Positions 5,285 to 64,000 are shown, counted from the stretch's first letter. The stretch is 64,000 bases of DNA from an uncultured Candidatus Saccharibacteria bacterium (GCA_964431415.1 CAYSJS010000001.1:65740-129739); one strand, 5' to 3'. Numbers and translations: made by a program. The notes: generated by a model from the letters alone, not told the origin.

Positions 5285-5998
5285 GTGGGGGTTTTCAGTA
5301 ATACGCAGATACGTGCCGCACTAAAGAATGGTCATATTGTATGCACCCCTCTGAACCCGAAACATGTTTCGGAAGCAAGTCTTGACGTAACGCTCGGCTA
5401 TTATTACTACCGCGTAGAAAGAGTTAATGAACGGGGAATTTATAACCCGTTTGAACGCGAGGACGTAGAAAGATATTTTGACGGCCCCTATAAAGCGATG
5501 CCCCACAAAGCATGGTGCGACTTAAATGGCGTGAAGCCGTTAAAAAACATTCCCGACGACCATCCGGTTATTGCACTTAAGCCGGGCGAAAGAATCCTTG
5601 CACATACTCACGAATTTTTTGGAATCATACCGCCCGGAGCATGTGAAGTAAAAAGCCGCAGCAGCTGGGGCAGGAACGGTGTTGCCGTATGTTTTGACGC
5701 TGGCTGGGTCGACCCTGGGTACATAAACCGCCTAACTCTAGAGATCTATAACCTAAACCAGCGCGAAACGGTTGTGCTGCCGGTGGGCGAACGTATAGCT
5801 CAGATTATTTTTCACGAAACCGGCGCCGTGGACGGTAACTACGGCGAGGGAAGAGACGGCGGTTTCAGCGGCAAATATCAGTCCGGGACAAACCTGAGCA
5901 CCATCATGAAGACCTGGTCTCCGGCGCAAATGCTGCCAAAAGCGTACAAAGACAAACGTGAAATGCCCGAAAAAATCGAAGGACTCAGTTATGAATAA
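5285..5998 (+). CDS. dcd: dCTP deaminase family protein (dUTPase superfamily)
   Basis: GTG start after GAGGGAGG RBS. N-terminus IRAALKNGHIVCTP...SLDVTLG and core KSRSSWGRNGVAV...DPGYINRLTLEIYN match the Dcd pattern. Confidence 0.75.
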   Translation: MGVFSNTQIRAALKNGHIVCTPLNPKHVSEASLDVTLGYYYYRVERVNERGIYNPFEREDVERYFDGPYKAMPHKAWCDLNGVKPLKNIPDDHPVIALKPGERILAHTHEFFGIIPPGACEVKSRSSWGRNGVAVCFDAGWVDPGYINRLTLEIYNLNQRETVVLPVGERIAQIIFHETGAVDGNYGEGRDGGFSGKYQSGTNLSTIMKTWSPAQMLPKAYKDKREMPEKIEGLSYE

Positions 5999-43107: not shown

Positions 43108-44016
43108 TTATCCGTCGGTCGGCTGCCCACCGTTAAAGTCGAGCGTCTTATGCGGCGCATATGAACAATAATCACTAACAATGTTTGGCTTGGACGGATT
43201 CACAACCTTCAGGGACAGTTCCTTTGCTTTCTGGATGTCACTGCCCGGCAATTGCTCTATCCAGCACCGTCCGTACCACTCCAGCGATTGGAACTGATTG
43301 TGAATGGCTGCCCATGTTTTATTCTTTGATATATCATTTGGCATCCGGTAGTCATAGGTGCCGAAGTCAAAGCCGAAGTTTTTTGTAGCAGGGAAGCCGA
43401 CTTCAGTAGCAACAACTTCTCCTGCCTTAAACTTCTTTCTTTCAAATGGAGCATTCGGATCAGAAAGAGTGTCGTTCAGCTTCGGTTCTGGCGTCTTTTT
43501 GGCGATTTCCGCAAACTCTGGCGTCAAGGTGTACACATGGTCAAACCGAAACGCGATACCGCAGTCTGTTTCGAACGTAAGTAAGTATTGCAGCTCTGCT
43601 GGACTTCCTTCGAAATATCGCTTTAGGTTTACGAGTGTGGCATCCGCCGGCATTACGATTTCGATTTTGCCGCTGTTCATGTCTTTTAGGCGCATACCCC
43701 CGTGAGGCTTATAGTTAAAGCCTCTGTACGCACCAGGCATACCTATAACCTCTATCTTAGCAAGGTCGACAGGGGAGCGGTCAAATACGTACGGATCCGC
43801 GCACTGAGTCGGCGTACCGGACTTTGCAAACCACTTCAACTCTTTTTCATTAAATCCCCAGACCACATCACCGTTTGCAGTGCTGCCGCTGCTTTGTGTC
43901 GTATCTTTGTTATTTTTTTCGAATACTTTCAGCCCTGCAAAAAAGACTACGCCCAGAACGCACAGAACCAGAACAAGAGGAAGAATATGGAAGCCAGCTT
44001 GGCTGGATTTTTTCAT
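43108..44016 (-). CDS. Secreted/anchored hypothetical protein
   Basis: N-terminal signal/anchor FHILPLVLVLCVLGVVFFAG. 302 aa. Confidence 0.55.
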   Translation of the reverse strand: MKKSSQAGFHILPLVLVLCVLGVVFFAGLKVFEKNNKDTTQSSGSTANGDVVWGFNEKELKWFAKSGTPTQCADPYVFDRSPVDLAKIEVIGMPGAYRGFNYKPHGGMRLKDMNSGKIEIVMPADATLVNLKRYFEGSPAELQYLLTFETDCGIAFRFDHVYTLTPEFAEIAKKTPEPKLNDTLSDPNAPFERKKFKAGEVVATEVGFPATKNFGFDFGTYDYRMPNDISKNKTWAAIHNQFQSLEWYGRCWIEQLPGSDIQKAKELSLKVVNPSKPNIVSDYCSYAPHKTLDFNGGQPTDG

Positions 44017-44706: not shown

Positions 44707-45840
44707 ATGAAATCACCATTCTTTCTAGATGATTGTAACGCCTCGGGCTCACTTATAGGCTTTGAAGGTCCATTTTTTATAGGGAACACGCCTGTATTTG
44801 ATGAACGCTATCCTCTTGATGCGCGAATTATAAGAACCCTGGCTGACGTTACTCCCGAGATGTCTGACCTTAAAAAACATCTGCTTGCCGGAAAACTCTT
44901 TCCCGACCACTTTTTTGATATATCAGAAGGCAGCGCTGCGAACACAGTGCCAGAAGTCATGCAACTGGAAGATGCTGAGGCCGCCTTCGAGAACTGGTTC
45001 TTGTCGTCTCGCGGTGTTAACACAAAACAAGATCTGAGCCCGAGCGATGCACGGTCTTTTGTTGACCAAAAAGATATTTGGATGCTTCGTGCATACTCAG
45101 TAAACGGCGTCTGCCCTAATGGCAGTTACTTATACGATCCAGTCTACAGCTTAATTCCTCCTATCAGTGAACCTGATTTGTTTTTGAAACACATAGTGCA
45201 AGGGTTTAGCAAAAACGGTAACGACCATATGGCGCTGCGACGCAACATGGGAAACGTGCCGAATGGCATAACCGGCTTCCTGAAGGATGGCGCTACCTCA
45301 AGATCCCACAGCTCAATCATGCACGACCTACGTATAGTAGACGCTGTCGCCCAGAGAACTTTCCCTGTAGAAATTGTTTCGAGATACGCAACTATGAATC
45401 TTTTTGAAGGCCTGTACTGCAAAGAGGCGCTTCCAGATGGTAGCACGCCATCCGCTTCAATATATTCAGAAGATTCAGGCCCAAAATATGCATTAACTCT
45501 CTATCAGAGAGATTGTAAAGATGTTTTTGAAAGAGAATTAGGTGCAACAGAAGTCGGTAAAAAATATGCCTATGATTTCAGTTGTTATACGGCAGAAATA
45601 GTAGCCACCGCCTTAGCCTGCGACAACTTTATAAAAACCAGTGGAAGACACGAGCTACTACCCGAAGGGTACAGTTGTTTTAATGAGCTCTTGGCTCATG
45701 CTGCAGCAGCAGGCGTGGGTAACTTGGTTACAGACATTCGTGCATTTTGTGCCGAGCGAGGTTTAGACAGTACGCCTTTTATGCTGCCGTATGCATGGTT
45801 TTTGGAAAAAAGTACTCCGCCAACCACAAGCACGCAGTAA
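44707..45840 (+). CDS. Hypothetical protein
   Basis: 377-aa ORF with no recognisable domain. Confidence 0.5.
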   Translation: MKSPFFLDDCNASGSLIGFEGPFFIGNTPVFDERYPLDARIIRTLADVTPEMSDLKKHLLAGKLFPDHFFDISEGSAANTVPEVMQLEDAEAAFENWFLSSRGVNTKQDLSPSDARSFVDQKDIWMLRAYSVNGVCPNGSYLYDPVYSLIPPISEPDLFLKHIVQGFSKNGNDHMALRRNMGNVPNGITGFLKDGATSRSHSSIMHDLRIVDAVAQRTFPVEIVSRYATMNLFEGLYCKEALPDGSTPSASIYSEDSGPKYALTLYQRDCKDVFERELGATEVGKKYAYDFSCYTAEIVATALACDNFIKTSGRHELLPEGYSCFNELLAHAAAAGVGNLVTDIRAFCAERGLDSTPFMLPYAWFLEKSTPPTTSTQ

Positions 45841-51676: not shown

Positions 51677-51763
51677 AAGTCAATTATAGCAAGTAAAGAA
51701 CCTCTAGGCATGACAAGGGGTTAGGATTAAACCGCGCAAGCAGTTCGGTCGCCTAAACCAACA

Positions 51764-51805
51764 GCCAAAGAAAAACCCGCCATTTTAGGCGGGACTTTCT
51801 TTGGC
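51764..51805 (-). terminator. Rho-independent (bidirectional-type) terminator
   Basis: gccaaagaaaaacccgcc atttta ggcgggactttctttggc: GC core stem with flanking A/T tracts, 34 nt 3' of the stop of 51839..52351. Confidence 0.75.
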
Positions 51806-51838
51806 TGGACATTGTAGACGTTATTAGAACTATACTTA

Positions 51839-52351: not shown

Positions 52352-52393
52352 GCGTAAACTGTACCACTCTTAAATAGAATTATCTATTATACT

Positions 52394-52427
52394 TGTGCTT
52401 GGCTGGGGCTAGTGGACGAGTTGCAGG
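52394..52427 (-). repeat. Cassette-3' motif family copy (A)
   Basis: tgtgcttggctggggctagtggacgagttgcagg, 16-49 nt 3' of the stop of 52443..52820. Confidence 0.6.
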
Positions 52428-52442
52428 AAGTATGGACAGGAT

Positions 52443-52820
52443 TTAAAGATTTGGGCTGTGCAGTTCTTCACGATTTTTCATTAGCATGAGTTTTGATTGC
52501 TCTAGATCATAGACCCGTAATCCAACGACGATTATCCTTCCAACTTCATCTGTGGGAATTCTGATTTGATCACCACCCAAACCAAATTCTAGTTTCTTAC
52601 CTGGGAACATTGCTTGTACGACACCGTAGTATTGATCGCCGACCTCTCGTGCTCGCCGCGCACCATGGGTCTGGGCAAAACTTAAGTTATCAAGTGGCGC
52701 AAGAAACACGTCACCATTGCCGTCACGGAATCCCTCTTCGGCAATTCTTTCGGCACTTCTAAAATCTGTACCATGATAGCCGCCAATGTGAATATTTCGA
52801 ACAGAATCATACTCCGACAT
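52443..52820 (-). CDS. Hypothetical protein with GYHGT...E pattern (speculative ADP-ribosyltransferase/Tpt1-like fold)
   Basis: 125 aa. N-terminus IHIGGYHGTDFRSAERIAEEGF resembles the YHGT nucleotide-binding start of ART-fold enzymes; this is weak and motif-level only. Confidence 0.4.
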   Translation of the reverse strand: MSEYDSVRNIHIGGYHGTDFRSAERIAEEGFRDGNGDVFLAPLDNLSFAQTHGARRAREVGDQYYGVVQAMFPGKKLEFGLGGDQIRIPTDEVGRIIVVGLRVYDLEQSKLMLMKNREELHSPNL

Positions 52821-52826
52821 AATGAT

Positions 52827-52855
52827 ATATTACCACATTATATGCATAATTTCAA
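52827..52855 (-). promoter_or_regulatory. Promoter of 52443..52820, probably producing a leaderless mRNA
   Basis: On the minus strand: -35 ttgaaa, 17-nt spacer, -10 taatat, then 6 nt to the ATG at 52820. Confidence 0.5.
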
Positions 52856-52865
52856 TAGTTCTAAA

Positions 52866-52906
52866 GTGCTTATGCTTGGCTGGGATTAGCGGACAAACTT
52901 CGCAAC
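52866..52906 (-). repeat. Cassette-3' motif family copy (B)
   Basis: gtgcttatgcttggctgggattagcggacaaacttcgcaac, 42-82 nt 3' of the stop of 52948..53409. Followed by a ttcgca/tgcgaa 6-bp inverted repeat. Confidence 0.6.
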
Positions 52907-52947
52907 ATTGATGCGAAATTACTTTCTATCATTCAACATGCGTAAGT

Positions 52948-53409
52948 TTATTCTTTCGGTAGTTCCGTCTCTGGGTTAGCTGCACCAAACAGTGTTGACG
53001 CATCTACTGACCCTTCAGGATGACCTACTGCTTCTGCTAATTGTGCTGCGAGTTCTGGGTCACCCGCAATTCTTCGTTCTACCAGTTGCGATATTGTTGC
53101 TGGGTAAAATACGCCGACAACACGTCCGTGTCGTGAAACTATTGCTGGTGTATTATTCATCACCGATTCATCAATCCCTTCAGCTAAAGTTCGTACCCCT
53201 TCAGACGCCCTATCTGTTCTTGATGCTTGAATAGTTGGTTCCATTCCGTGGATACGATCAACTCCTCCGCCAAGAGCACCTTGCTCTAATGCTATTAAGT
53301 CTGAATCGCCGTCAGGATTAGCTGCTATAGCGTCTGCCCATTCTTGTGCTCGCTGATCTTTAGCACTTGATATCGCAGGTAGTTCACCGCCTTCATGTTG
53401 CATGCTCAT
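52948..53409 (-). CDS. Hypothetical protein with Phd/YefM-antitoxin-like segment
   Basis: Start at ATG 53409 (MSMQHEGG) behind AAGGAG. The longer track ORF (to 53517) reads through a repeat element. The segment NNTPAIVSRHGRVVGVFYP resembles the Phd/YefM N-terminal beta-strand region. Confidence 0.5.
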   Translation of the reverse strand: MSMQHEGGELPAISSAKDQRAQEWADAIAANPDGDSDLIALEQGALGGGVDRIHGMEPTIQASRTDRASEGVRTLAEGIDESVMNNTPAIVSRHGRVVGVFYPATISQLVERRIAGDPELAAQLAEAVGHPEGSVDASTLFGAANPETELPKE

Positions 53410-53451
53410 ATAAAACTCCTTTTGAATAATAATACGCCCACCCCCGAAAAC

Positions 53452-53516
53452 TGCAAGCATGAGCAAATTAAAAAGATCTCTGGTTATAGAGGTCAAAGTG
53501 CCTATGGCTGTAGGCA
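53452..53516 (-). repeat. Long copy (C) of the cassette-3' element; direct repeat partner of 62962-63037
   Basis: tgcaagcatgagcaaattaaaaagatctctggttatagaggtcaaagtgcctatggct aligns with 62962-63018 with ~5 substitutions and 1 indel. Contains a terminator-like hairpin with no gene upstream of it on the minus strand. Confidence 0.8.
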
Positions 53517-53702
53517 TATCTACAATGATTGTAACAGCTATAAACGAGACAAATGAGACACTACTGCGGGCCTCTCGTATTTAAAGATATTCTGTCCAGC
53601 TCTTCAGTCTGTTTTAGCATTACGCAAGCAGTCCGATATTGTATTTTTTATTGTCTTACTCTACTGTAAACGTCAGTAAGAGATTAACCGTCTGGAGCAG
53701 AT

Positions 53703-55013
53703 GTGAAGACACTTGGTGTAGTAGGCTTAGGTTATGTAGGCTTACCGCTTGCCGTACAAGCTGCAGCAAAAGGCTACAAGGTTACTGGAATAGACCTAAA
53801 CGCTAAGCTGATAGCACAAATTAATAACCGCCAATCGCCATACGTTAACGACATGCGATTTAGTGATGCCTTGCGACAGATAGACAAGAGCAGGTTAAGT
53901 GCAACGAACTCTTTTTCTTCCTTGAAGAAGGTGGAAAATATTGTTGTATGCGTACCAACGCCTACCGAAAGTGGCGTACCAGATCTGAGGTATGTGTCTC
54001 GTGCAGCGGAGCAGATTGCAACATATATTAAACCAGGACAGTTTGTGTCATTCGAGAGCACCGTAAACCCAGGCGTAACGCGCGATGTGGTACTTCCGCT
54101 ATTAGAAAAAGGATCGGGTTTAAAAGTTGGCGAAGACTTTTTTCTGGCTCATTGTCCTGAACGAATCGATCCAGGTAACGACAAATTCTTTGTAGGCAAC
54201 CTCAACAGGGTAGTGGGAGGAATAACGGATAGTTGCACGCAACGGGCGGTGAAATTCTATTCGAGCATTATCGATGCGAAGATTCTACCACTAAAATCTG
54301 CCGAGGAAGCTGAGTTTGTGAAATCATGGGAGAACAGTCATCGAAACGTCATGATTGCGCTGGCGAACAGCGCTGCGGTTATTTGTGATGCGCTCGGTAT
54401 GGACGTCGCTCGCGTACTAGAAGGTCTGCAATCTAAGGTGGATCAGTTTGGTCTTTCCTTAGCTAAACCAGGCATAGGCCCAGGCGGACATTGTATACCC
54501 GAAGACATACATTATGTGATAAGACGCGCTCGACAAATGGGAGTCGACACACGTCTTTTAGACGATGCTGCAGACCTAAACGATAATATGCCACGTTATG
54601 CTGTACATAAATTATCTGAAATGGTAAGGGATTCAGGAGAAGATCTTAGCAAGCTTTCTGTCGCCCTTCTTGGCCTAGCCTATAAACCTGAGGTAGCAGA
54701 CGTGAGATGCTCGCCGTCGATCGAAGTCGCGTACAGTTTAATACGATGCGCGAAGTCGGTTATAGTCCAGGACCCCTACGCAAAGAACATCGGCGACGCA
54801 CTGCCTCCTATACATGAAGCTACCAGCCTAGAAGAAGCATTACGCCTAGCTGATGTCATTTTTCTAGGCACGGGTCACAAGATATATATAGATCGGTTGA
54901 CGGCAAAAACATTAATGAACTACAAAATAAGGTATGTTCTCGACGGTCGTAACGTTTTAGATAAGAGCAGTATTGAAGCGGCGGGGATAGGCTACAGGGG
55001 CATCGGAAGGTAA
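53703..55013 (+). CDS. NDP-sugar dehydrogenase (UDP-glucose/GDP-mannose dehydrogenase family; WecC/TviB-like active site)
   Basis: GTG start. Rossmann motif GVVGLGYVGLPLA, catalytic GPGGHCIPEDI. 436 aa. Confidence 0.88.
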   Translation: MKTLGVVGLGYVGLPLAVQAAAKGYKVTGIDLNAKLIAQINNRQSPYVNDMRFSDALRQIDKSRLSATNSFSSLKKVENIVVCVPTPTESGVPDLRYVSRAAEQIATYIKPGQFVSFESTVNPGVTRDVVLPLLEKGSGLKVGEDFFLAHCPERIDPGNDKFFVGNLNRVVGGITDSCTQRAVKFYSSIIDAKILPLKSAEEAEFVKSWENSHRNVMIALANSAAVICDALGMDVARVLEGLQSKVDQFGLSLAKPGIGPGGHCIPEDIHYVIRRARQMGVDTRLLDDAADLNDNMPRYAVHKLSEMVRDSGEDLSKLSVALLGLAYKPEVADVRCSPSIEVAYSLIRCAKSVIVQDPYAKNIGDALPPIHEATSLEEALRLADVIFLGTGHKIYIDRLTAKTLMNYKIRYVLDGRNVLDKSSIEAAGIGYRGIGR

Positions 55014-55037
55014 AACCTGCCATGATAAGATAGTCTA

Positions 55038-55967
55038 GTGAAGAAAATACTAGACTCTGAGCTTTTAGAACTACTTCAGCGAATATATGGCCTAGCAGAC
55101 CCGGTATTGTCCAGGCCCGTAAGCGGCATTGAGAGCAGCACATACATCATAGCTACTAAAAAACGAAAGTACGTAGCAAAGCTATACGACGATGTTCCCA
55201 GTGCAAAAATCATTGCTCAGTTTCAGGACCGGCTTTCTATATCCCATCTACCAGTGCCCTATATACTGCGCACAAGTTCTGGTGAGCTCACAACCCAAAT
55301 AGATGACGGCGTTATGGTGATATCCACGTTTTCATACGGCGAACCAATTGGCTGGAGTAAGGAGTTTGCTTCTCTGCCCAGTCATCTAAATACAAGTCTC
55401 GCTCTTGTTGTAGCTAAAATGCACTTACTATCCCTAGATATAGACACAAAGACCAAGCCGTCACATCGATTAAGTGTTGAACGAATAACGGGCTTACAAA
55501 GTTATGACTCTACAAAATGGCCATTTTTAGACAAACTTCAATATGTAAGAAAAGGCATGATACACGGCGACTTGGCACGTGAGAATATATTTATCAGCAA
55601 GTCACGTAAGTCAGTTGAGGCAATCATTGACTTTGGTGATGCCCACTATGACTACATAACATTCGACTTAGCTATATTGCTCACGCAAATTTATGTTACA
55701 AAAAGCTGGGGCATAGACTTTGATGGCATTCGTGAATTTCTGGCACAGTACACTCAGATGAACCTTTTATCTGAAAGAGAGCGCGAAACTATACTACCCT
55801 TGATGAAACTTCGAAATAAAAGCTTGTTGCAGGAAATTGAGCAAAAGCTTCGTAAAGAAAATGCCGACGTGATGACCTTGGATTCGATAAAGCGATCTCT
55901 GGAGTTCAAACTAGAGTTGCTAAACGAACACGGCAATCGATTAAATAATATTATTCTGAGCAGCTAG
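55038..55967 (+). CDS. APH/choline-kinase-family phosphotransferase
   Basis: GTG start. Brenner motif MIHGDLARENIF and IIDFGDAHYD. Confidence 0.8.
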   Translation: MKKILDSELLELLQRIYGLADPVLSRPVSGIESSTYIIATKKRKYVAKLYDDVPSAKIIAQFQDRLSISHLPVPYILRTSSGELTTQIDDGVMVISTFSYGEPIGWSKEFASLPSHLNTSLALVVAKMHLLSLDIDTKTKPSHRLSVERITGLQSYDSTKWPFLDKLQYVRKGMIHGDLARENIFISKSRKSVEAIIDFGDAHYDYITFDLAILLTQIYVTKSWGIDFDGIREFLAQYTQMNLLSERERETILPLMKLRNKSLLQEIEQKLRKENADVMTLDSIKRSLEFKLELLNEHGNRLNNIILSS

Positions 55968-57184
55968 CTTTCGCTATCCGACACGGTTAGAATTCCCTTA
56001 CGCGAAAGTCGTGCTCCCGTTTCGTCCATTAAATCAAGCACATCGGCAAATCTGAATGAAGGCACTCTCAACATATCTTCTCTTCCGATAACACCTTCTG
56101 CATACAGATTCATCATCTCGTACTGCGTCATGCAGTATGAACAGTCTTCATGTTTTTCGCTTGGGTCGTAGTTAGAATCCGCGCGATGTATGTCAAATAC
56201 TTCACTGGAGTCATTGAGAACATTTCCCAACATCGGCATAGTACTTCCGCACGCACACATTTCTGCGTTACCGTAGTTATCGACTCCCTGTACGAAAAAC
56301 GGTACGTAGCACCGATTCGACCGACGACCATCACTCATCATCGCAACCAATCTCTCAAGGTATGGCTTTGGTGGCAATACAGACTGGTAGTCGTCATATC
56401 TGTCAATAACAACTCGACGAAATATTTCCAGCTGCTCCGCGGTAAAGTCTAGCATTTTTCGACCGTCTCCCCTTACTGGGCGGGGAACTACGATTATGTC
56501 GCCCATATCTTTGAACGTGTCGAGCATCACGTCGAAGCTTCCCGTATTATGACGCGTAAGTACACAGTTTATTTCTATTGGCATGCCTTTTTCCAAGATA
56601 TAACGTATGTTTTCAATAACTTTCTCTGTAATATTGCCGTTTGGCGTACGCGCTCTGTTCGTCTCCAGAGTAGTACCGTCCAGTGATATTTGGAAGTAGA
56701 CGTTACCCATACCGGCAAAATCGTCGATTTGCCCAGGGGTCAGTTTATATCCGTTAGTAAGAATCTGAACCGCAGCATAGTTGTCGTGAACTTTGCGAAC
56801 ATAATCTGTCAGCTGTGGGTAAAGCGTTATCTCGCCGCCGGACAGCTTAAGTATGCGGGAATCAGCCTCCGTGCTCATAGCCGATATGACTTTCTCGCCC
56901 AAAGCAAAAAAGTCTGTGATTTGTGGTCTTGCAGGCAACGCCTCTTCCGCTATAGGAACTAGGCTCAGTGTTTTACGCCAGCTTTCTGGCATATGGGCTT
57001 CGCCTTGCCGGTCGATACGCATCGGGAAACCGGATGGAGCACAGTAACCACACGCAAGATTACAGGCCTCATCGAGTATTCTTTGGTCATGGAAAACAAA
57101 TTTTGGCTTACGGTCTTGCTCTTGTATGTCGACAACTGAAGACAACGAATTTTCTCCGTTATCAAAAACTTCCAACTCCGCCAT
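55964..57184 (-). CDS. Radical SAM enzyme with C-terminal Cys-rich SPASM/twitch-like extension
   Basis: CNLACGYC (CxxxCxxC), SGGEITLY, QISLDG. C-terminal cysteines: NRCYVPF...AEMCACGS and HEDCSYC. Confidence 0.85.
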   Translation of the reverse strand: MAELEVFDNGENSLSSVVDIQEQDRKPKFVFHDQRILDEACNLACGYCAPSGFPMRIDRQGEAHMPESWRKTLSLVPIAEEALPARPQITDFFALGEKVISAMSTEADSRILKLSGGEITLYPQLTDYVRKVHDNYAAVQILTNGYKLTPGQIDDFAGMGNVYFQISLDGTTLETNRARTPNGNITEKVIENIRYILEKGMPIEINCVLTRHNTGSFDVMLDTFKDMGDIIVVPRPVRGDGRKMLDFTAEQLEIFRRVVIDRYDDYQSVLPPKPYLERLVAMMSDGRRSNRCYVPFFVQGVDNYGNAEMCACGSTMPMLGNVLNDSSEVFDIHRADSNYDPSEKHEDCSYCMTQYEMMNLYAEGVIGREDMLRVPSFRFADVLDLMDETGARLSRKGILTVSDSES

Positions 57185-58535
57185 TTCGACCTCCGATAAT
57201 AACTTTTCTTTTCGCCAACGAACCTAAAGTAGAACGTATTGTTTCATGACTTAACCCTGTCGTCAATCTTATCTCCTCGATAGATACAGCATTGCCGCAG
57301 CATGCCATGACGGCCAATTCATTTTCTGACAGGTCATATATTTTTGGCGGTAATTCGTTGTTGCCAGAGAGATATACTTTTCCGTTTTGCAAAGTAGCAA
57401 ATGGTGAGATAAAAAATGTCTCGGGCACAACAAGCTTGTCCTTGTGATTCTGGGCGATATCGAGATAAAGCCGCATGTAAACTTCGCTTATTGTTTTCAT
57501 GTTGTAGTCCGTCTCCAGTATCGTACGAGATTCGCGTAACACATCCCCCATCTTAGGATCTGTTAACAAGCGTCGAATCCCGCGGATAATAGCATCTGTG
57601 GAGGGCTCACACGTAACAACTGCCGGCAATGCCTCTGCAAGACCGGGCAGGTTGCCAAACGGAAATGCAAGCACTGGCGTACCACATGCTACAGACTCTA
57701 TGCATACTTGCGAAAATGACTCAGGAAGCCTTGAAAGGGAAAGGGTTATGTCAGCGACAGAGTATAAGTACTTGAGATTGGCGGACTCCTGCCAACCGAT
57801 ATGTTTGACCCGTGGATGCTGCTGGCGGGAATCTACGTCAAAAGTGGTTATAACTGTCAGATTTGAATAATCTTCCGATAGTGACTCGCAAATTTGGCCT
57901 ATGCGATCATCACCTTTACCGACGTCTGCTCTACCAGGGAAGAATAGAATAGGTCCGTCCTTTTCGTCTAACTGAACTCCCCATTCAGCTAGTTTTTTTA
58001 GCGCTTTAGCTTTCGGCACATTATAAAACAGTTCAAAGTCGACGCCCCGGTTTATGGTATGAACCTCGGCAGGGCTTCCGGTGAGAGCCGCAAAGTTTCG
58101 AAATGTCCTAGTAGCGAAACTGGATGGGCTTATCACCGCATCCCAGTCGCCAGCTAAAGCTTTATCAAGATGGCTGCCTTTGTCGGCCGTCGTAAGCATT
58201 ACGTCATGAAGATGGTATACAAGTGCAGCCCTCCTTCGTTCCAGAGGAATACGCGGGAAAGTAAATGAGCATGTATGGACACTTAATACATCTACTTCTT
58301 CGGCTTCCTCAGTTAACCGGCCGACCATATTTTGATCATCAAGCTTTTCAAACTTGACTCCATCGTAATCAGTAAACTCATCTCGGGGATCATTAATACT
58401 GCGACTTAGCACGGTCACCTCGTCTATAACATCAAAATCGAGTGCGCTCCTCGCGAGGGCGAGGATCGTTCGAGCCTTCCCGCCGTACTGAAGCGGATAT
58501 ATCTCTGGTTCGTCATCAATAAAACTAACTTTCAT
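57162..58535 (-). CDS. GT-B glycosyltransferase fused to a C-terminal winged-helix-like domain
   Basis: Start at ATG 58535 (MKVSFIDD), in ATGA overlap with the upstream stop. GT4-like LPESFSQVCIESVACGTPVLA. The last ~70 aa, LSENELAVMACCGNAVSIEEIRLTTGLSHETIRSTLGSLAKRKVI, look like a MarR/wHTH. Confidence 0.7.
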   Translation of the reverse strand: MKVSFIDDEPEIYPLQYGGKARTILALARSALDFDVIDEVTVLSRSINDPRDEFTDYDGVKFEKLDDQNMVGRLTEEAEEVDVLSVHTCSFTFPRIPLERRRAALVYHLHDVMLTTADKGSHLDKALAGDWDAVISPSSFATRTFRNFAALTGSPAEVHTINRGVDFELFYNVPKAKALKKLAEWGVQLDEKDGPILFFPGRADVGKGDDRIGQICESLSEDYSNLTVITTFDVDSRQQHPRVKHIGWQESANLKYLYSVADITLSLSRLPESFSQVCIESVACGTPVLAFPFGNLPGLAEALPAVVTCEPSTDAIIRGIRRLLTDPKMGDVLRESRTILETDYNMKTISEVYMRLYLDIAQNHKDKLVVPETFFISPFATLQNGKVYLSGNNELPPKIYDLSENELAVMACCGNAVSIEEIRLTTGLSHETIRSTLGSLAKRKVIIGGRNGGVGSF

Positions 58536-59473
58536 ATGCAGACTCTCCAGTATCTTTGTGCGCATTCTGTTTGTGTGTCAACCCCTTCAAATCGAGCTTC
58601 AGCCACTACTGCGCGAAAGTCCTCCCGCATAATGGCATGCATTTGAGCACGGTTAATATCATCGAATTGTGAGCGGTAAATTATTGCCGTATCCGCCATT
58701 GTGTCCAAATAATCATCCACTTTAACGTATTCTGGTACGAGTCGACATTCATCCATAACGCTTCGTAGACGGTGAGCGTATGCACTCTTGTTTCGCGCGT
58801 ACGGATAGTCCTCATAAAGCACTAATTTAACTTCCTCTCCGAGTTGACGCTTAATAGCTACGCCTATATCAAATGTCACCAAATGGTCAATGTGACCTTG
58901 TACCGCCAAAGGACAGAGCACTATATCGGCGCCAAATTCCAGGACAGATTCTATAAGTATACCTGTTATATTTTGCACTAATTCTTGGTCGTTGTGGTTT
59001 TCGCCAAAAATTTCCTCATAGCCTCTTTTGCCTGCCAAAGGAAGTCGTAGAGACTCGAATTGTTGCCCGAGCAGCTCCTCAACTGCCAAACGGGACTCCT
59101 CTAATCGCAGGTCTTCTAGCTGCTCTTCGGTGATTGCAACTTTATCTTTCCAGGGAAATCGGTCGATAGCAGTCTTAGAAAACACATTTATTACACGACA
59201 CACACCTCCGACCCCCACGGCATTCATCATATAACCCGAGGCAGATAACGCTGCGTCATCAGGATGAGGCTCCAATATCACAGTCCGGCAGCCTTCCTGT
59301 TCTGTCGCTGGAAAATCTGGTTTATTTACATAAATTCCTTCTGCTAACAGGATTTTTCTTCCGGCCGGTGACTCTGAATCTATCCCTTCGGTTTCAAGGT
59401 AGGTGTATTGCCCAAGGTATTTGAAACAGCCTTCTTCCTTAGTAAAGTAAGGGAGCTGCAAGATCTCACTCAT
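58532..59473 (-). CDS. PIG-L/LmbE-family N-acetylglucosaminyl deacetylase
   Basis: VILEPHPDDAALSASG and QGHIDH (zinc-ligand motifs of the MshB/BshB/BtrD family). Confidence 0.85.
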   Translation of the reverse strand: MSEILQLPYFTKEEGCFKYLGQYTYLETEGIDSESPAGRKILLAEGIYVNKPDFPATEQEGCRTVILEPHPDDAALSASGYMMNAVGVGGVCRVINVFSKTAIDRFPWKDKVAITEEQLEDLRLEESRLAVEELLGQQFESLRLPLAGKRGYEEIFGENHNDQELVQNITGILIESVLEFGADIVLCPLAVQGHIDHLVTFDIGVAIKRQLGEEVKLVLYEDYPYARNKSAYAHRLRSVMDECRLVPEYVKVDDYLDTMADTAIIYRSQFDDINRAQMHAIMREDFRAVVAEARFEGVDTQTECAQRYWRVCI

Positions 59474-60617
59474 TTCCTACTATACTCCTAGCTAGATTTT
59501 GGTATGTCTCGCCCCACCGTCGGATATCATAACGATTCGACCACGCCATATCAGGACGCTGCCTCTGCATATCTTTCAACACCGTTGTTAGTGTTTGCGA
59601 AAACGCTTGAGCCGTATGTTCAAAAAAGTGGGCTTTTTTATTCCCAGCTCCTATTTCCTTAAAAGTAGGCAGACTATTCAAAATTGTGGGTATTCCTAGT
59701 GCTAACGATTCAAGCGCCGAATAACCAAAACTTTCCGATTTACTAGGCAGAGCTACAATGTCGGCATGCCTGTACGCTTCCGCCATTGAAGGAAACTTAC
59801 AAAATTGCGCCTCAAATCCCGCCTTCACAGCTATTCGTTCTAGTTTTTTGCTGTTTTCCCGGTACTGGGGGTCTTTTCCTGTAGCAAGGACGGTGATGCG
59901 CTTTCTCAAGCTCACGGGCAGCAGTGCGACACCACGAAACACAATCTGTGGTCTTTTTTGAACCAGCTCCAGACGACTTGGCAGAAGTATGGTCACTCTG
60001 CTGGGGTCGTTGTCCGCATCTTGATTAAAGACAGTCCCCGTCGAGGGCTCGTGGTTGAGCCTCGATATATCGATAGCGTGAGGTATGGTTAGTACGTGTC
60101 GTTGAAACATTTTAGAGAAACGCTGACTGTAGTAGTCCGATGGTGTCGTAAGGAGCGTCCTTTTATACAAGCCTCTTCGCATCTTTTTTGCTACACAAAG
60201 AAGTCTTTCTCGTCCCCAGTCAAGTCGAAACTCAAAAGGATTTGTGTGTATGGTAAGAATCCGAGGCATATCCTGCCATGCATCGACGAAGAGCAGCGAG
60301 TTCAGCTGTATAGCATCAAACTTACTCACGTTAACTTTGGCCTCTAAATAGCTTGCCCATTTAGCATAGAATGAATCACCCGTATCATTGTTAGCAAATG
60401 CCTGTAAATCATACTCGTCAGCTGCCTCTTCATTCCCGAGCAAATCAAGACTTGTATACTTCACCTCATTAATTCTGCAACTCTTACCCGACAATACAAA
60501 AACTTCCACATGATTACCCAGCACATGCAACTGGCTAGCTAGATCAATCGTAAACCTCTCCGTTCCACCGACCGAAGTCTCAGAAATCGCCCAAGGACTA
60601 ATGATGGCTATATTCAT
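59466..60617 (-). CDS. Glycosyltransferase family 4 (MshA/BshA/BtrM-like)
   Basis: N-terminus ISPWAISETSVGGTERF. E-x7-E PSKSESFGYSALESLALGIPTI. Confidence 0.85.
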   Translation of the reverse strand: MNIAIISPWAISETSVGGTERFTIDLASQLHVLGNHVEVFVLSGKSCRINEVKYTSLDLLGNEEAADEYDLQAFANNDTGDSFYAKWASYLEAKVNVSKFDAIQLNSLLFVDAWQDMPRILTIHTNPFEFRLDWGRERLLCVAKKMRRGLYKRTLLTTPSDYYSQRFSKMFQRHVLTIPHAIDISRLNHEPSTGTVFNQDADNDPSRVTILLPSRLELVQKRPQIVFRGVALLPVSLRKRITVLATGKDPQYRENSKKLERIAVKAGFEAQFCKFPSMAEAYRHADIVALPSKSESFGYSALESLALGIPTILNSLPTFKEIGAGNKKAHFFEHTAQAFSQTLTTVLKDMQRQRPDMAWSNRYDIRRWGETYQNLARSIVGNE

Positions 60618-61608
60618 TCGAAACTCCTAGAATCTCATCATATAGCGAATCAGTTAACCGGCTGCTCAGGTCAAGGGAGGGGGTCTTTTCGTCTAGTATC
60701 GTGTACCGGTCCATTCGAGGTCGAATACCTTCAAGTGAAGCAACGATTGACCGCCGCACGTCATATCTGTCGGCTATATCACTCATGACGCCAATTCGCC
60801 GTAGAGCAGCCTGTATATCGGCAGAGTAATTGTCCTGGAGATGGGACATTAGTGTTATGCCGCTAGCGATGCTGATTCCATGCGGTATATCAGTCATAAG
60901 CTCAAGTTCTTTGGCGAAGATGTGCTCAGAACCACTCTCCGGTCTTCCGCTTCCGTAAATATTAGTTATATGTCCCGATTCGCCTATCATAGAAAACAAA
61001 GAGGGTATGTCAAGAGTGTTCGGAGCCGTTAGTCCAAGCGCAAAGGTGGTAGCATTATGAAGCAGGTTTTGTGACATTCTATAAATAGAACTATCGATTT
61101 TTTCTACTCCGGCACTGTCCGCTAAACGCCAATCATGGAGCGCTGTATGGATGGATAATATATCGCACAATCCATAGAGATTTTGCGTTCCAGCCGTAGC
61201 AACAAGATCGGTATCTAAAATTATCTCGTCCGCCATCTTAGCGTCAAGCGTAACCTTTGCACCATTCTTGATTAGGGCAACTTTATTCGTCGCAAAGGCA
61301 TTCGTAGACAAGATAGTTGGCATGCAAATGAATTTACTTTGCAAAATGTATGCTATGTATTTTGCAATATCGATGGCCGTGCCGCCCCCAAATCCAATTA
61401 CCGTATCAATGTCTAATCTGGCGCAAAGTTCCTCGATCTTGGCGGCATCTTTGCCAACTTCGTGCGCACTGACAAAAACGCCTTTTCCTCGTACGTTTTT
61501 TAAGCGCCTAAGTGAGGTAGGTGAATATATTACCAACGAATGCTTTGAAGTAGCGTTAATACGAGCTTCGGCAGATGCATGCGTAGTGATATCCAGAAAA
61601 TGTTTCAT
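60598..61608 (-). CDS. Glycerol-1-phosphate dehydrogenase (AraM/EgsA)-like enzyme of the DHQS/iron-ADH superfamily
   Basis: GFGGGTAIDIAKYIA, CMPTILSTNAFAT, CDILSIHTALHDW, SGSEHIFAKELE, PHGISIASG. This block order matches G1PDH/AraM better than DHQS/DOIS. Confidence 0.65.
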   Translation of the reverse strand: MKHFLDITTHASAEARINATSKHSLVIYSPTSLRRLKNVRGKGVFVSAHEVGKDAAKIEELCARLDIDTVIGFGGGTAIDIAKYIAYILQSKFICMPTILSTNAFATNKVALIKNGAKVTLDAKMADEIILDTDLVATAGTQNLYGLCDILSIHTALHDWRLADSAGVEKIDSSIYRMSQNLLHNATTFALGLTAPNTLDIPSLFSMIGESGHITNIYGSGRPESGSEHIFAKELELMTDIPHGISIASGITLMSHLQDNYSADIQAALRRIGVMSDIADRYDVRRSIVASLEGIRPRMDRYTILDEKTPSLDLSSRLTDSLYDEILGVSNEYSHH

Positions 61609-62261
61609 ATGATAAAACTTAATATCTTTTTCATATTCTGCGGCGTATACCCGTGGATTATATCGTCCGCTTCACTCAAGTCTTGAGTTTCATTGAAGCC
61701 ATTGCGCAAACCAAAGCAATACAGACCTGCCGCTTTTGCCGATGTAACCCCGTTCTTAGAATCCTCAATAGCAATGAGTTTAGAAGTTTGTTCGCCGAGA
61801 AGTTCTGCTGCCCTCAGATACACATCTGGAGCTGGCTTACCCTTTGCAACTGATTTGTCGTCGCCTGATACTATCACTGTAAAATCAATCGGGAGCGCGG
61901 AATTATGCAGCGCAGTGTCGATCCATATACGTTTAGACGAAGATGCGACCGCCATTTTAGTTTTACGTATGCTTAATCTACGAAGCAGCGTTTCGATATT
62001 CTGTAGTGGCTTTGCATAATTTGCGTATAGCTCCATTGCCATCTTATGGTAATCGGCGAAATACTGCTCTTCCGTTAATCTCAGTCCTCTGTTTTTGAGA
62101 TATGTATATGCTTCTGGAAGTGAGTGGCCTATTAAATGCTTATACTCATAAGGATCCCAGCCAGGGACACGCTCAATAAGATAACGATTCTCTATCTTTT
62201 CCCAATGCTTCTCGCTATCGTATAAGACACCATCAAAATCGAAAATTATACCGGAATACAC
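61605..62261 (-). CDS. HAD-IA phosphatase (beta-phosphoglucomutase-like subfamily)
   Basis: IIFDFDGVLYDSE motif I, SSS motif II, K...EDSKNG motifs III/IV. First gene of the six-gene minus-strand operon. Confidence 0.85.
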   Translation of the reverse strand: MYSGIIFDFDGVLYDSEKHWEKIENRYLIERVPGWDPYEYKHLIGHSLPEAYTYLKNRGLRLTEEQYFADYHKMAMELYANYAKPLQNIETLLRRLSIRKTKMAVASSSKRIWIDTALHNSALPIDFTVIVSGDDKSVAKGKPAPDVYLRAAELLGEQTSKLIAIEDSKNGVTSAKAAGLYCFGLRNGFNETQDLSEADDIIHGYTPQNMKKILSFII

Positions 62262-62310
62262 ACGCAGCTTCTCCTGAGCGTCTGTCTATTTTAGCCTTCC
62301 TGAAAATGTT

Positions 62311-62339
62311 ATTTTACTGCTCGAACATAGTATTTGCAA
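62311..62339 (-). promoter_or_regulatory. Promoter of the six-gene operon (61605..62261 through 55964..57184)
   Basis: On the minus strand: -35 ttgcaa (62339-62334), 17-nt spacer, -10 taaaat (62316-62311). CAGGAGAAG RBS before the ATG at 62261. Confidence 0.55.
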
Positions 62340-62408
62340 ACCCTAGTTTATATAACGGCAGCTATTTTGTTATGTCCTCGACTGGAGATGCAGGAGATGA
62401 TCTTTGAG

Positions 62409-62429
62409 CAGATATACTGAAAATATCTG
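62409..62429. promoter_or_regulatory. Perfect 7-bp inverted repeat upstream of the operon promoter (possible operator)
   Basis: cagatat actgaaa atatctg, ~70 nt upstream of the -35. Confidence 0.3.
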
Positions 62430-62440
62430 TAAATTATCGT

Positions 62441-62466
62441 TTGGGCCAGTGGACGTACTTCGCAAC
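62441..62466 (-). repeat. Cassette-3' motif family copy (E)
   Basis: ttgggccagtggacgtacttcgcaac, 20-45 nt 3' of the stop of 62486..62932. Shares agtggac...acttcgcaac with copy B. Confidence 0.6.
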
Positions 62467-62485
62467 CTTTTCGTTGACATTAATA

Positions 62486-62932
62486 TTAATGATTATTTGC
62501 AGTCTTGAACGGAATTATAGCAACAATTTGATGCGTAGGTTTTCTTCCGACTTTTTTCCATATAGTTCCGGGGTTTTTAACTGCCTCTATTGCAACATCT
62601 CTTCCTTCTTCAAAGAATTTGGAAATCATTTTACCAACTATCATATGTGATACTTGAGCCAATGCTCCACCAAACGCCTGCTCACCATCCATACCTCTAT
62701 CAATTATGCCTGTAGGTGATAGGTCTGGTTTGGCATGTACGATTTGATTATGCCCACGTCGCGTATAGCACGTAGTTAGTCCTACCTCTAATGCATCAAA
62801 AGCAGTAAGGGCATCATGCTGAAGGGCAATAGTAGCAATATCCATACCATGTTCACGTCTAATGACTCTATCGATGAACTTATAATCACCGTGGGGCAAT
62901 GTTAGGCCTATATAGTAATCTGTTTCTGTCAT
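62486..62932 (-). CDS. Hypothetical protein
   Basis: 148-aa ORF with no recognisable domain. Confidence 0.45.
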   Translation of the reverse strand: MTETDYYIGLTLPHGDYKFIDRVIRREHGMDIATIALQHDALTAFDALEVGLTTCYTRRGHNQIVHAKPDLSPTGIIDRGMDGEQAFGGALAQVSHMIVGKMISKFFEEGRDVAIEAVKNPGTIWKKVGRKPTHQIVAIIPFKTANNH

Positions 62933-62961
62933 TACATCAAAATAGCATTATTACAACATTT

Positions 62962-63037
62962 TGCAAGCATGAGCAAATTAAAAGACCTCTGGCTACAGAG
63001 GTCAAAGTGCTTATGGCTAGTGGACACACTTCATAAC
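62962..63037 (-). repeat. Long copy (D) of the cassette-3' element, including a rho-independent terminator
   Basis: Left arm gcaagcatgagc; perfect hairpin gacctctg gcta cagaggtc (62984-63003) followed on the minus strand by ttttaattt; right arm gtgcttatggctagtggacacacttcataac. Lies 8-83 nt 3' of the stop of 63045..63626. Confidence 0.8.
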
Positions 63038-63044
63038 ATTTGTG

Positions 63045-63626
63045 CTATCGCCTATAAATAACATCTATCTCTTTAACGATGTAGGTATCAAAGCTGCTAG
63101 TAAGTAGTGCTGTTTTTTGAGTTGCCGTCGTATTACTATCAAATTTGCAAGTATACCCTTCTGGACAGGTATATGTTTTATCGAGCACATAGGTAATACT
63201 GATTGATTTATTTCTATTTATGTAGCGGGTATTAATTGACGAGAATTTTGGCCCATTCGATGCAGTATCATAATAGGGTTTCGCAGGCTCACCTTGGATT
63301 ATAAATCCTGCCTTCTTTAAATTTAACGATACATCACTATACAGCTGATTAAAACTGCTGTTAAGTTCTATCCGAGCTTGCGCATAAGCCGATTTATAGG
63401 TATCGGCAGATGCAGTCAGGATGTCACCGTCTACTTGTTTAACGGCAGCAGTAGAAAATCCAGAAACTATATTTATACTACTTAACTCTTCAGCCTTCTT
63501 TTGGGCCAGATAATTGAGTCTCATCATCTTTGCCACTGGATTAATACTTGGACTTAGCAAGGCGTACCCAATAATGACTACCGCGAATGTCATACCTAAT
63601 ATCTTAATAACTTTTTTCTTTTTCAT
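63045..63626 (-). CDS. Secreted/anchored hypothetical protein
   Basis: Start at MKKKKVIKILGMTFAVVIIGYALL (ATG 63626). The longer track ORF (to 63686) runs into repeat copy F. Confidence 0.5.
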   Translation of the reverse strand: MKKKKVIKILGMTFAVVIIGYALLSPSINPVAKMMRLNYLAQKKAEELSSINIVSGFSTAAVKQVDGDILTASADTYKSAYAQARIELNSSFNQLYSDVSLNLKKAGFIIQGEPAKPYYDTASNGPKFSSINTRYINRNKSISITYVLDKTYTCPEGYTCKFDSNTTATQKTALLTSSFDTYIVKEIDVIYRR

Positions 63627-63662
63627 AGGCCTATTGTAACTAATTACAATAAAACTTACACG

Positions 63663-63695
63663 GCGCTTATGCTTGGCTGACATCACAGTTGCAGG
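63663..63695 (-). repeat. Cassette-3' motif family copy (F)
   Basis: gcgcttatgcttggctgacatcacagttgcagg, 24-56 nt 3' of the stop of the IMPase-like gene. Shares a 15-mer gcttatgcttggctg with copy B and ttgcagg with copy A. Confidence 0.6.
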
Positions 63696-63718
63696 GCTAA
63701 ACTACTGCAAGTTAATTA

Positions 63719-64000
63719 CTAAAAATAATGATACTCTGCGTCGATCTCTGCCAATCGAGAGACGACAATTTGTAATAGCTCAGGTGTTGCTGCGGCAAGG
63801 AAATACCTATCCCATCCACTTTCCGGCTTCGTATAATCTAGTTTTTTACCATCTATATCCGTTATGCTGCCACCTGCTTCTGTAAGTATTACTTCTGCTG
63901 CCAAGGTGTCCCATTTACCTGCCTTGAGGTTTGTATGAATAAATATATCTGCATCTGCAGCGGCAACAAGACCAATTTTTGCGCCGATACATCCCTCTGG
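63719..64000 (-). CDS. Inositol monophosphatase / CysQ-family phosphatase, C-terminal part (truncated by the window edge)
   Basis: The frame stays open to position 64000. GKWDTLAAEVILTEAGGSITDIDGKKL matches the IMPase WD-x-AA...EAGG motif. Confidence 0.75.
   Translation of the reverse strand, partial: PEGCIGAKIGLVAAADADIFIHTNLKAGKWDTLAAEVILTEAGGSITDIDGKKLDYTKPESGWDRYFLAAATPELLQIVVSRLAEIDAEYHYF

Follow-up and report, generated by a model that had tools for sequence, protein, structure and literature searches.

A gene cassette array downstream of tRNA-Gln in a Saccharimonadia-like bacterium, with a direct repeat pair and a sugar gene block

Members of the Patescibacteria have tiny genomes and depend on hosts, and their gene acquisition is poorly understood. 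Among described systems that bear comparison with the locus treated here, Xer-dependent modules (the pdif modules of Acinetobacter plasmids, and IMEX, integrative mobile elements exploiting Xer recombination, at dif) combine small gene modules with short conserved sites and a recombinase encoded elsewhere. Prochlorococcus has tRNA-anchored islands into which tycheposons insert one after another, with partial tRNAs left behind (10.1101/2020.12.28.424599). The present locus lies in a stretch of 64,000 nucleotides (nt) from an uncultured Candidatus Saccharibacteria bacterium (GCA_964431415.1, CAYSJS010000001.1:65740-129739), called the window below, in which two copies of a direct repeat, A and B, flank a cluster of sugar-related genes. 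Like tycheposon and tandem tRNA or transfer-messenger RNA (tmRNA) islands, it has an intact tRNA at one end, scattered direct partial copies of the tRNA 3' end, and a hypervariable region. A and B are probably the leader sides of two tRNA-derived junctions in a cassette array.

The organism is a poorly sampled, Saccharimonadia-like member of the Patescibacteria, because its acetate kinase (ackA) is at most 47% identical to proteins of Candidatus Saccharimonas and Paceibacterota metagenome-assembled genomes (MAGs; GTDB species representatives) and one homologue of the radical SAM protein of the sugar block is assigned to Candidatus Saccharimonadales.

The tRNA-Gln anchor, the array and its junctions

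Exact-sequence look-up of the open reading frame (ORF) of 148 amino acids (aa) next to copy A returned 18 contigs from ENA and Logan assemblies; all those compared match the window at 99.98% identity or more and keep its gene order. One of them, L011, is 99.99% identical to window 52486-64000 and extends 8.9 kb past the right end. It carries an intact tRNA-Gln(TTG) at L011:2101-2175, 6.8 kb past that end (ARAGORN; 59 bits with the Rfam tRNA model), which is co-oriented with the cassette genes and ends in ...GGTTCGAATCCCTCACCCCCAGCCA. From ~48 kb to the window end run small, mostly orphan minus-strand ORFs with spacers of 60-220 nt, and the repeat family of these spacers is a degenerate tRNA-Gln 3' end (gene-orientation consensus GTCCACTAGCCCCAGCCAAGCATAAGCAC), copies of which lie in nearly every spacer from the tRNA-Gln to ~48 kb of the window. 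Exact CCCCAGCCA occurs eight times on the cassette strand, from the tRNA to window 52408, and nowhere else on either strand of the 72.9-kb composite, against an estimated chance expectation of ~0.6; according to the gene calls, seven of them lie between genes, and the first forms the 3' end of the tRNA itself. A profile made from the tRNA-end copies finds seven fragments at E <1e-3, on one strand throughout.

The window from ~48 to 64 kb and the 6.8 kb beyond it are a cassette array downstream of tRNA-Gln(UUG), with the cassettes running in the direction of the tRNA. Most units are a single small gene each, 0.4-0.8 kb long; genes for an integrase, for replication or for excision are not seen among them, and a search for paralogy among the cassette proteins found none. 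The region has some of the hallmarks of a tRNA-targeting island: an intact co-oriented tRNA at its boundary, and direct partial 3'-end copies that delimit segments. Promoter-like sites are present in many cassettes (scan and reading of spacers). Partial tRNA 3'-end copies likewise occur in the related loci L021, L024, L028 and L030; gene content after tRNA-Gln is different in every locus, and the sugar block is found in arrays on different tRNAs.

The junction sequence is widely conserved. A scan of JGI metagenomes for GTTGCGAAGTNNGTCCRCYRNYCC returned 29 loci, about 25 of which hold an almost invariant (aaa)GTTGCGAAGTACGTCCACTAGCCCCAGCCA between unrelated flanks, with two to three copies on three contigs. 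Column conservation is ~90% over the 30 nt of GTTGCGAAGTACGTCCACTAGCCCCAGCCA and 40-50% right after CCA; several junctions have a common 5' extension, GTTGCGAAGTnnGTCC, that resembles a diverged T-loop. In all eight metagenome loci holding a tRNA-Gln, that gene precedes the motif by 0.5-1.4 kb on the same strand, and a co-oriented ORF (~77-270 aa) stops -1 to 42 nt before the motif in ~22 of 33 instances. The core follows the anchor tRNA: in L030, headed by tRNA-Trp, three of three junctions read CCCC(T)TGCCA, which is the end of that tRNA (core CCCCTGCCA), and in L024, anchored on tRNA-Gly, a junction reads TCCACTAGCCGCACCA with the core GCACCA. Some cassettes are common to separate arrays: a 193-aa gene of this array has a 60% identical counterpart in L059, L041 and L058 share a cassette (84%), and a Fic toxin-antitoxin pair is common to L021 and L053 (74%). 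The motif has no matches in viral contigs, phage records or plasmid records. No Rfam family lies at the junctions, as the gathering-threshold search of the window was empty and an E-value search of 10.7 kb (the tRNA and the junctions up to E) gave the tRNA only. The motif was not found in the literature searched, and keyword searches gave no description of such arrays in Saccharibacteria or Patescibacteria.

From these alignments, a junction may be read as three parts. The left arm, GTTGCGAAGTACGTCCACTAG, is constant and would mimic the T-loop and acceptor strand of a tRNA; the core, CCCCAGCCA, would be the last 9 nt of the tRNA including CCA; and the variable right-hand leader would be part of the next cassette, usually with a terminator and then a promoter-like site. 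Leaders with a GACTTCT...AGAAGTC terminator occur in L030 (twice), L034, L050, L058 and L011:8274, of the type AGCATAAGCAC-ATGAAA-GACTTCTnnnAGAAGTC-TTTTT. The A/B leaders are a sub-variant of this widespread leader type, and a complete junction in L037 continues from ...CCCCAGCCA into TAAGCATTTTGACCTCTGTA, sharing the first 20 nt of A's leader.

A junction hidden Markov model (HMM) was built solely from the independent metagenome loci and then run on the window. The sites placed by it, by comparison with the tRNA end and by manual alignment are:

63665-63679, minus strand: junction F, shortened, GTCAGCCAAGCATAAGC, between the inositol-monophosphatase-family gene and the 193-aa gene (weak match, E 3.5)
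63017-63037, minus strand: left arm of junction A, GTTATGAAGTGTGTCCACTAG (HMM match 63015-63032, 12.8 bits, E 0.011)
62442-62466, minus strand: junction E, GTTGCGAAGTACGTCCACTGGCCCA (HMM match 62441-62470, 34.1 bits, E 2.3e-9)
53508-53535, minus strand: putative arm and core of junction B, decayed, GTTACAATCATTGTAGATATG-CCTACAGCCA (manual alignment)
52866-52906, minus strand: junction C, GTTGCGAAGTTTGTCCGCTAATCCCAGCCA then AGCATAAGCAC (HMM match 52865-52906, 23.5 bits, E 4.7e-6)
52387-52418, minus strand: junction D, GTCCACTAGCCCCAGCCA then AGCACAAGTATAA, containing exact CCCCAGCCA (23.4 bits, E 5.3e-6)
51749-51812, minus strand: junction G, CCAGCCA and a terminator at 51793-51776

Junction E scores highest in the window; it falls within the A-B interval and separates ORF 62486-62932 from the first operon gene of the sugar block. 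By manual count the arm of A agrees with the consensus at 17 of 21 positions, and its core appears 6 nt shorter (CTAGCCA in place of CTAGCCCCAGCCA). In the manual alignment B keeps ~9 of 21 arm positions and 7 of 10 core positions, with the correct spacing. A promoter-like site, TTTAGA-17-TATAAT, follows junction C. Over 58 nt, junction G matches the CCA end and trailer (terminator) of the intact tRNA-Gln, 19 kb away, at 84% identity; it may be an older edge of the array or a leader that was copied locally. Leaving aside the terminator hairpin, the spacers at B, C and E do not fold more stably than shuffled sequence, whichever strand is taken (z -0.4 to +0.5).

The repeat pair itself consists of:

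62962-63018, minus strand: copy A; AGCCA (a CCA-end remnant), TAAGCAC, the hairpin GACCTCTG-TAGC-CAGAGGTC, TTTTAATTT, then GCTCATGCTTGCA (-35-like)
53452-53509, minus strand: copy B; leader of the 153-aa ORF cassette, with a hairpin at 53475-53494 that has a C.A mismatch on the minus strand

In gene orientation, copy A reads GTTATGAAGTGTGTCCACTAG-CCA, then TAAGCAC, TTT, the hairpin, TTTTAATTT and GCTCATGCTTGCA; copy B reads GTTACAATCATTGTAGATATG-CCTACAGCCA, then TAGGCAC, TTT and the hairpin. On the plus strand, the unit is TGCAAGCATGAGCAAATTAAAA(A)GAYCTCTGGYTAYAGAGGTCAAAGTGCYTATGGCT. The pair ranks top among the families in a repeat search of the window. The repeat begins exactly at AGCCA and extends rightwards, on the leader side and 3' of the conserved arm-core; only AGCCA overlaps the arm-core motif, and the remainder falls within the stretch that differs from junction to junction. 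Likeness between A and B fades at both ends and is sparse outside the unit (MAFFT), with ~50% identity just 5' of AGCC by manual alignment. Neither tblastn nor blastn finds a remnant of the 63045-63626 gene adjoining copy B or anything past the 58 nt.

Much of what a sequence-only reading of the window had said about these copies holds. They are a direct repeat, with 53 of 58 positions identical and one single-base indel (blastn, local E 8e-19), although the length of ~65 nt shrinks to 58 nt and the right end of B, given as 53516, was placed 7 nt too far. They are closer to each other than to other family members, as a formal alignment bears out: in an identity matrix of 43 junction units (A, B and 41 others, drawn from this array and the 29 metagenome loci), A and B are 0.91 identical, either of them reaches at most 0.71 with the 41 others, and the mean of all pairs is 0.58. 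A terminator hairpin had been ascribed to both copies, and the terminator scan bears this out for A only. It calls the hairpin at 63003-62984 on the minus strand (8-bp GC-rich stem, 4-nt loop, U-run TTTTAATTT), 41 nt past the stop codon of a co-oriented gene, which makes it an intrinsic terminator by definition. Copy A acts as the leader of the 148-aa ORF cassette and as terminator for gene 63045-63626, and that this copy ends a real gene is confirmed by a 60%-identical homologue of the same length, P0123. Copy B is not called by the scan and, with its stem mismatch and no co-oriented gene upstream, falls outside the definition of an intrinsic terminator. No minus-strand gene feeds into it, as had been observed; the gene beside it (53703-55013) is divergent, on the plus strand. 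Since no co-oriented gene lies upstream, the B hairpin is a vestigial terminator, as proposed; the G-U pair cited as its defect belongs to the plus strand, whereas the relevant minus strand has the C.A mismatch.

The sugar block, its relatives and its neighbours

The sugar block spans 53703-62261 on both strands and holds eight genes, as judged from Pfam, NCBIfam, G+C content at third codon positions (GC3) and the orthologous blocks L021-L029:

61605-62261, minus strand: HAD-IA hydrolase
60598-61608, minus strand: glycerol-1-phosphate-dehydrogenase-like Fe-ADH_2 protein
59466-60617, minus strand: GT4 glycosyltransferase
58532-59473, minus strand: PIG-L deacetylase
57162-58565, minus strand: second GT4 glycosyltransferase
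55964-57184, minus strand: radical SAM protein
55038-55967, plus strand: APH-family kinase
53703-55013, plus strand: nucleotide-sugar dehydrogenase (TIGR03026, above its cutoff)

The block differs in composition from its surroundings. Core genes (25 of them) have a GC3 of 0.52, whereas the block has 0.43 and the small cassettes have 0.345; gene by gene the block is uniform (0.41-0.47), and its immediate neighbours have 0.25-0.28. Orthologous blocks elsewhere have 59-78% amino-acid identity per protein, and lie in varied contexts:

L021: block among PIN, PemK/MazE and Fic cassettes, with tRNA-Gln-type fragments between; one side truncated by an rve-family insertion sequence
L024: block 3.5 kb downstream of tRNA-Gly, with tRNA-Gly-type fragments; without the dehydrogenase gene
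L028: tRNA-Phe 3 kb upstream of the block; the first cassette is bracketed by a 74-nt repeat
L026: block without evident fragments

The conserved unit runs from the HAD hydrolase through the radical SAM gene and the kinase, usually with the dehydrogenase. Related genomes hold the block without flanking repeats comparable to A/B. A GTDB genome scan with the block GT4 protein found no relative, and in alignments the spacers upstream of the dehydrogenase gene are too diverged across relatives to define the distal block edge.

The block is likely to be one large, horizontally acquired cassette, bounded by E (proximal) and B (distal) and not by A and B, because E lies inside the A-B interval; B would be its distal end. 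This revises the sequence-only reading in part. Its view of the cluster as mobile, horizontally acquired cargo is supported by the tRNA-anchored array, by the distinct GC3 and by the orthologous blocks in other contexts; the composition of 53.5-63.0 kb, compared with the core as it had suggested, does differ (block 0.43, core 0.52). The alternative it named, a single giant cassette, is the closer description, except that the boundaries are E and B rather than A and B. ORF 62486-62932, which it had placed within the inserted block, is separated from the operon by E, has a GC3 of 0.275 and is without a counterpart beside the block in relatives. The idea that insertion or duplication of the block into an ancestral junction made A and B is not supported, given junction E inside the interval, the position of the repeat 3' of the motif, the lack of an empty site in ~13 samples, and the relatives that have the block without such repeats, an outcome that the sequence-only reading itself had named as refuting. 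A search for such a site found no adjacency of the 193-aa and 153-aa genes with a single repeat, and contigs with exact 148-aa or 193-aa proteins are all clonal.

Two observations concern the block genes themselves. The radical SAM (55964-57184) and APH-family kinase (55038-55967) genes are convergent and overlapping here, and the two proteins are fused in dozens of distant homologues (P0037 to P0116, ~630-645 aa), which points to a joint function. In the closest block relative (78% radical SAM identity), an rve-family transposase replaces the first five operon genes at L021:8628-9428; L022 and L023, of the same lineage from other samples, keep the operon genes lost in L021 as far as their contigs reach.

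The cassette genes next to the repeat copies are:

63045-63626, minus strand: 193-aa cassette gene, upstream of copy A
62486-62932, minus strand: 148-aa orphan ORF, flanked by junctions A and E as a small cassette in its own right, GC3 0.275
52948-53409, minus strand: 153-aa orphan cassette gene, downstream of B, with an AAGGAG ribosome-binding site 8 nt before its ATG at 53409

The 148-aa ORF has no Pfam or NCBIfam match and, in relatives, no tblastn match adjoining the block; it was considered as a block member and rejected, since the ORFs that precede the block in L026 and L028 show no homology to it. The N-terminus of the 193-aa protein looks like a signal or membrane anchor. Its homologue P0123 sits in a different cassette context, in L059, on a contig of 1.5 kb that ends 84 nt past the gene. 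The 153-aa protein has only a self match among 5.8 billion proteins. An apparent variant at a contig end (L016:7067-7112, NODE_9852, ERZ3756521) was discarded, the last 46 nt being Illumina adapter; the other end of that contig breaks inside copy A.

Further upstream in the array, two positions before the sugar block, an inositol-monophosphatase-family gene forms a cassette of its own (window 63700-64000 and on into L011:8411-9214); combined with the GT4, PIG-L and HAD phosphatase functions it hints at a glucosamine-polyol-type product. L011:4843-6638 is a reverse-oriented cassette with an AAA_15/AAA_21 ATPase (401 aa) and a 196-aa partner, and L011:3924-4643 encodes a 239-aa protein with weak matches to the HSDR_N_2 restriction-endonuclease-type domain and a phage endonuclease family. 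By their domain matches, the ATPase pair and the 239-aa protein look like defence cargo.

An ORF-less module of ~180 nt follows the tRNA-Gln terminator (L011:2176-2362). It includes an inverted T-arm-like GGGATTCGAAC, ends in a second tRNA-Gln 3'-end copy with another terminator, and recurs in unrelated arrays, after tRNA-Gln in L031, L044/L051, L055 and L057, and at L059:300-425; it may be a pseudo-tRNA or small RNA cassette. A separate 250-nt element is present twice, at window 39-288 and L011:1544-1793, 92% identical, in the same chromosomal orientation and ~71 kb apart. The second copy is just upstream of tRNA-Gln, ~7 kb past the window right end. The element folds as a ~60-bp hairpin plus small hairpins (minimum free energy -120 kcal/mol, z -11.6 vs shuffles) and has no Rfam match.

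Positions 1-42.5 kb of the window carry core chromosomal genes, among them dnaX, dnaB, recR, cysS, those for ribosomal proteins L1 and L10, a thyX-tmk fusion, phosphoketolase and acetate kinase. The fusion is a single 787-aa ORF (5958-8321) with thymidylate kinase and ThyX (flavin-dependent thymidylate synthase) domains. An 863-aa core-region protein (36268-38859), beside a GT2 gene, has a C-terminal PIG-L deacetylase domain, so the genome has a second PIG-L enzyme outside the array.

Mechanism and alternative explanations

In the proposed mechanism, circular cassettes arranged as arm, core and leader would recombine, through the core, either with the tRNA 3' end or with a further junction. 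Recombination would restore the tRNA and move older cassettes distally, and the putative recombinase would work in trans. The leaders of the 148-aa and 153-aa cassettes would owe their 91% identity to common descent, not to the arrival of the block. The B hairpin would be a fossil that once ended transcripts of the tRNA or of an upstream cassette, and the sugar block, whose last genes point the opposite way, would have been placed before B later. In conservative site-specific recombination, what stands right of the crossover in one product site has another parent than what stands right of it in the other. The insertion itself would thus not yield a 58-nt repeat on the right of the core, and the two cassettes would already have borne similar leaders. 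Homologous leaders on the 148-aa and 153-aa cassettes are the simplest reading.

Several points weigh against this account. The junction HMM does not detect B, the left arm of which is too decayed; B is a candidate junction judged from its leader and the manual alignment. The 0.91 identity of A and B could also be explained by a recent local event, either Campbell-type homologous insertion via the 58 nt or gene conversion. Similar leader pairs occur within single arrays (tRNA trailer and G, 0.84; two L030 junctions, 0.81), which hints at a process that copies leaders locally. Internal tRNA-type fragments (GAATCCCTCACCCCCAGCCA) are not predicted by the simplest serial-insertion model. Contigs from ~13 samples show no polymorphism, excised circle or empty site, and their order is identical. 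Finally, no recombinase was found in the window ORFs, in the 8.9-kb extension (precomputed Pfam marks, with PHROG on four ORFs) or near five other arrays (large ORFs of L030, L037, L049, L051 and L057): the ORFs tested have no Phage_integrase or other recombinase domain, and the 73 kb searched showed no integrase remnant. Because neither a recombinase nor polymorphism, a circle or an empty site was seen, we infer the mechanism from anatomy and distribution alone, and the same applies to which cassette owns which arm and to the order of arrival. Two proteins of the window were considered as recombinases, of 377 aa (44707-45840) and 302 aa (43108-44016), and set aside, having no Pfam or PHROG match and no obvious recombinase motifs; the 377-aa protein also has no sequence match in the PDB.

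The alternative that survives best takes up the main idea of the sequence-only reading: a circular segment (148-aa ORF and sugar block) integrated at an ancestral junction between the genes 63045-63626 and 52948-53409, so that A and B are an attL/attR-type duplicate, through Campbell recombination in the shared 58-nt leader or a recombinase crossover inside it. It is unlikely, but there are points in its favour: the direct repeats A and B are sharply delimited at either side, the segment between them is foreign in composition, and no other junction unit comes near the likeness that they have to each other. Bracketing pairs are also present elsewhere (74 nt at 74% in L028, 43 nt at 81% in L021, 0.81 in L030, and 0.84 for the tRNA trailer and G). 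Against it, the repeat is placed 3' of the arm-core, where conservative recombination would give leaders from different parents, and the model presupposes two similar leaders, which is already the explanation by a leader family. The strong junction E inside the interval would make the insert composite. Relatives that hold the block without such repeats, and the failure to find an empty site, also speak against it, and the 9% divergence and the apparent 6-nt core deletion in A argue against a recent event.

It is quite improbable that the arm-core motif and A/B act at the RNA level only, as tRNA-like 3' tags and terminators for mRNA processing or stability that recur by selection. The motif does stand right after stop codons, its conservation ends exactly at CCA, and an intrinsic terminator is often next. 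However, because the upstream flank is variable, the acceptor-like helix has no 5' partner strand, and the sequence is near-invariant without covariation, a pattern typical of DNA sites to which a protein binds. From array to array the core changes along with the anchor tRNA (Gln, Trp, Gly), as the recombination model predicts and an RNA tag does not, and the gene content beside the same tRNA is wholly different between genomes.

That the family members, A and B included, are integron attC sites, and the region a chromosomal integron or a cluster of attC sites lacking an integron integrase (CALIN), is very improbable. Small orphan ORFs in a row, most of them in one orientation and each with a related short repeat after it, would fit, as would the toxin-antitoxin cassettes in the array of a relative. 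Yet no RYYYAAC...GTTRRRY inverted-core pair was seen in the spacers inspected by eye, the spacers fold no better than shuffles once the terminator hairpin is set apart, and the ORFs tested have no integrase domain; moreover, the repeats copy a tRNA 3' end, an intact tRNA heads the array, and many cassettes have promoter-like sites of their own. The attC assignment was rejected on the absence of visible R-box pairs, the non-significant folds and the lack of an IntI. Chance flanking of the block by two copies of a small dispersed mobile repeat, of the miniature inverted-repeat transposable element (MITE) or repetitive extragenic palindromic (REP) kind, can be given hardly any credence, for although the unit has a hairpin and weak terminal inverted similarity (GCAAGCAT...GTGCTTATGGC), there are two copies only in 72.9 kb and no full copy in the 29 related metagenome loci, viral, phage and plasmid collections have no matches, no target-site duplication is seen at the ends, and both copies are in register with a tRNA-derived junction (AGCCA at the 5' end).

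The reading of A and B as junction leaders leads to a broader, more tentative proposal. Saccharimonadia-like bacteria possibly possess an undescribed integron-like gene-capture platform, in which a tRNA 3' end (Gln, also Trp, Gly and Phe) docks single-gene and multi-gene cassettes that have ~30-nt GTTGCGAAGTACGTCCACTAGCCCCAGCCA ends and their own terminator-promoter leaders, the recombinase being encoded elsewhere. If this is true, the A/B repeat represents a single leader type present twice, and the sugar cluster is a giant cassette of the platform.

Comparison with known systems

For terminators, the comparison is partial. Copy A is a textbook example of a Rho-independent terminator. Unlike plain terminators, the A/B unit recurs 9.5 kb away without a gene reading in, and is fused in register to a tRNA-end remnant. 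Termination alone does not explain the A/B pair, because B has no gene reading in and has the tRNA-end remnant fused in register. The flanking repeat would be a junction leader and not an insertion scar. The boundaries of the sugar island are also corrected, to E and B.

Xer modules differ from the array at the level of the site: the array sites are direct repeats from a tRNA end, not 28-bp dif-like XerC/XerD sites. Integrons resemble the array in organization. Like them, the array has ordered, mostly co-oriented single-gene cassettes, each ending in a related recombination-type site, its growth is presumed to take place at one fixed anchor, and orphan genes and toxin-antitoxin pairs are among its contents. 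Unlike them, it has no IntI that could be found, and its sites do not take the form of folded, imperfect palindromes bearing R''/R' boxes; a tRNA 3' end stands in the place of attI as the anchor, and the cassettes bring terminators and promoter-like sites.

With tycheposon islands the array shares the expectation that newer insertions would push older ones distally, as well as metabolic clusters and defence genes as cargo. It departs from them in that its units are mostly single small genes of 0.4-0.8 kb, with no element-borne integrase or remnant found in 73 kb, and, going by the description of tycheposons, in that its junctions have the near-invariant non-tRNA arm GTTGCGAAGTACGTCCACTAG across many metagenomes and different tRNAs. 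Two features are absent from the available descriptions: this arm, near-invariant across metagenomes and tRNAs, and the single-gene size of the cassettes.

A tRNA-docking cassette array would be a compact route of gene gain, marked by a conserved junction across environmental genomes and with no local integrase found. The motif allows such arrays to be located, their cargo (surface-sugar clusters, toxin-antitoxin pairs, defence genes) to be catalogued and the recombinase to be sought. Such an array would offer a useful contrast to both integrons and cyanobacterial tRNA islands.

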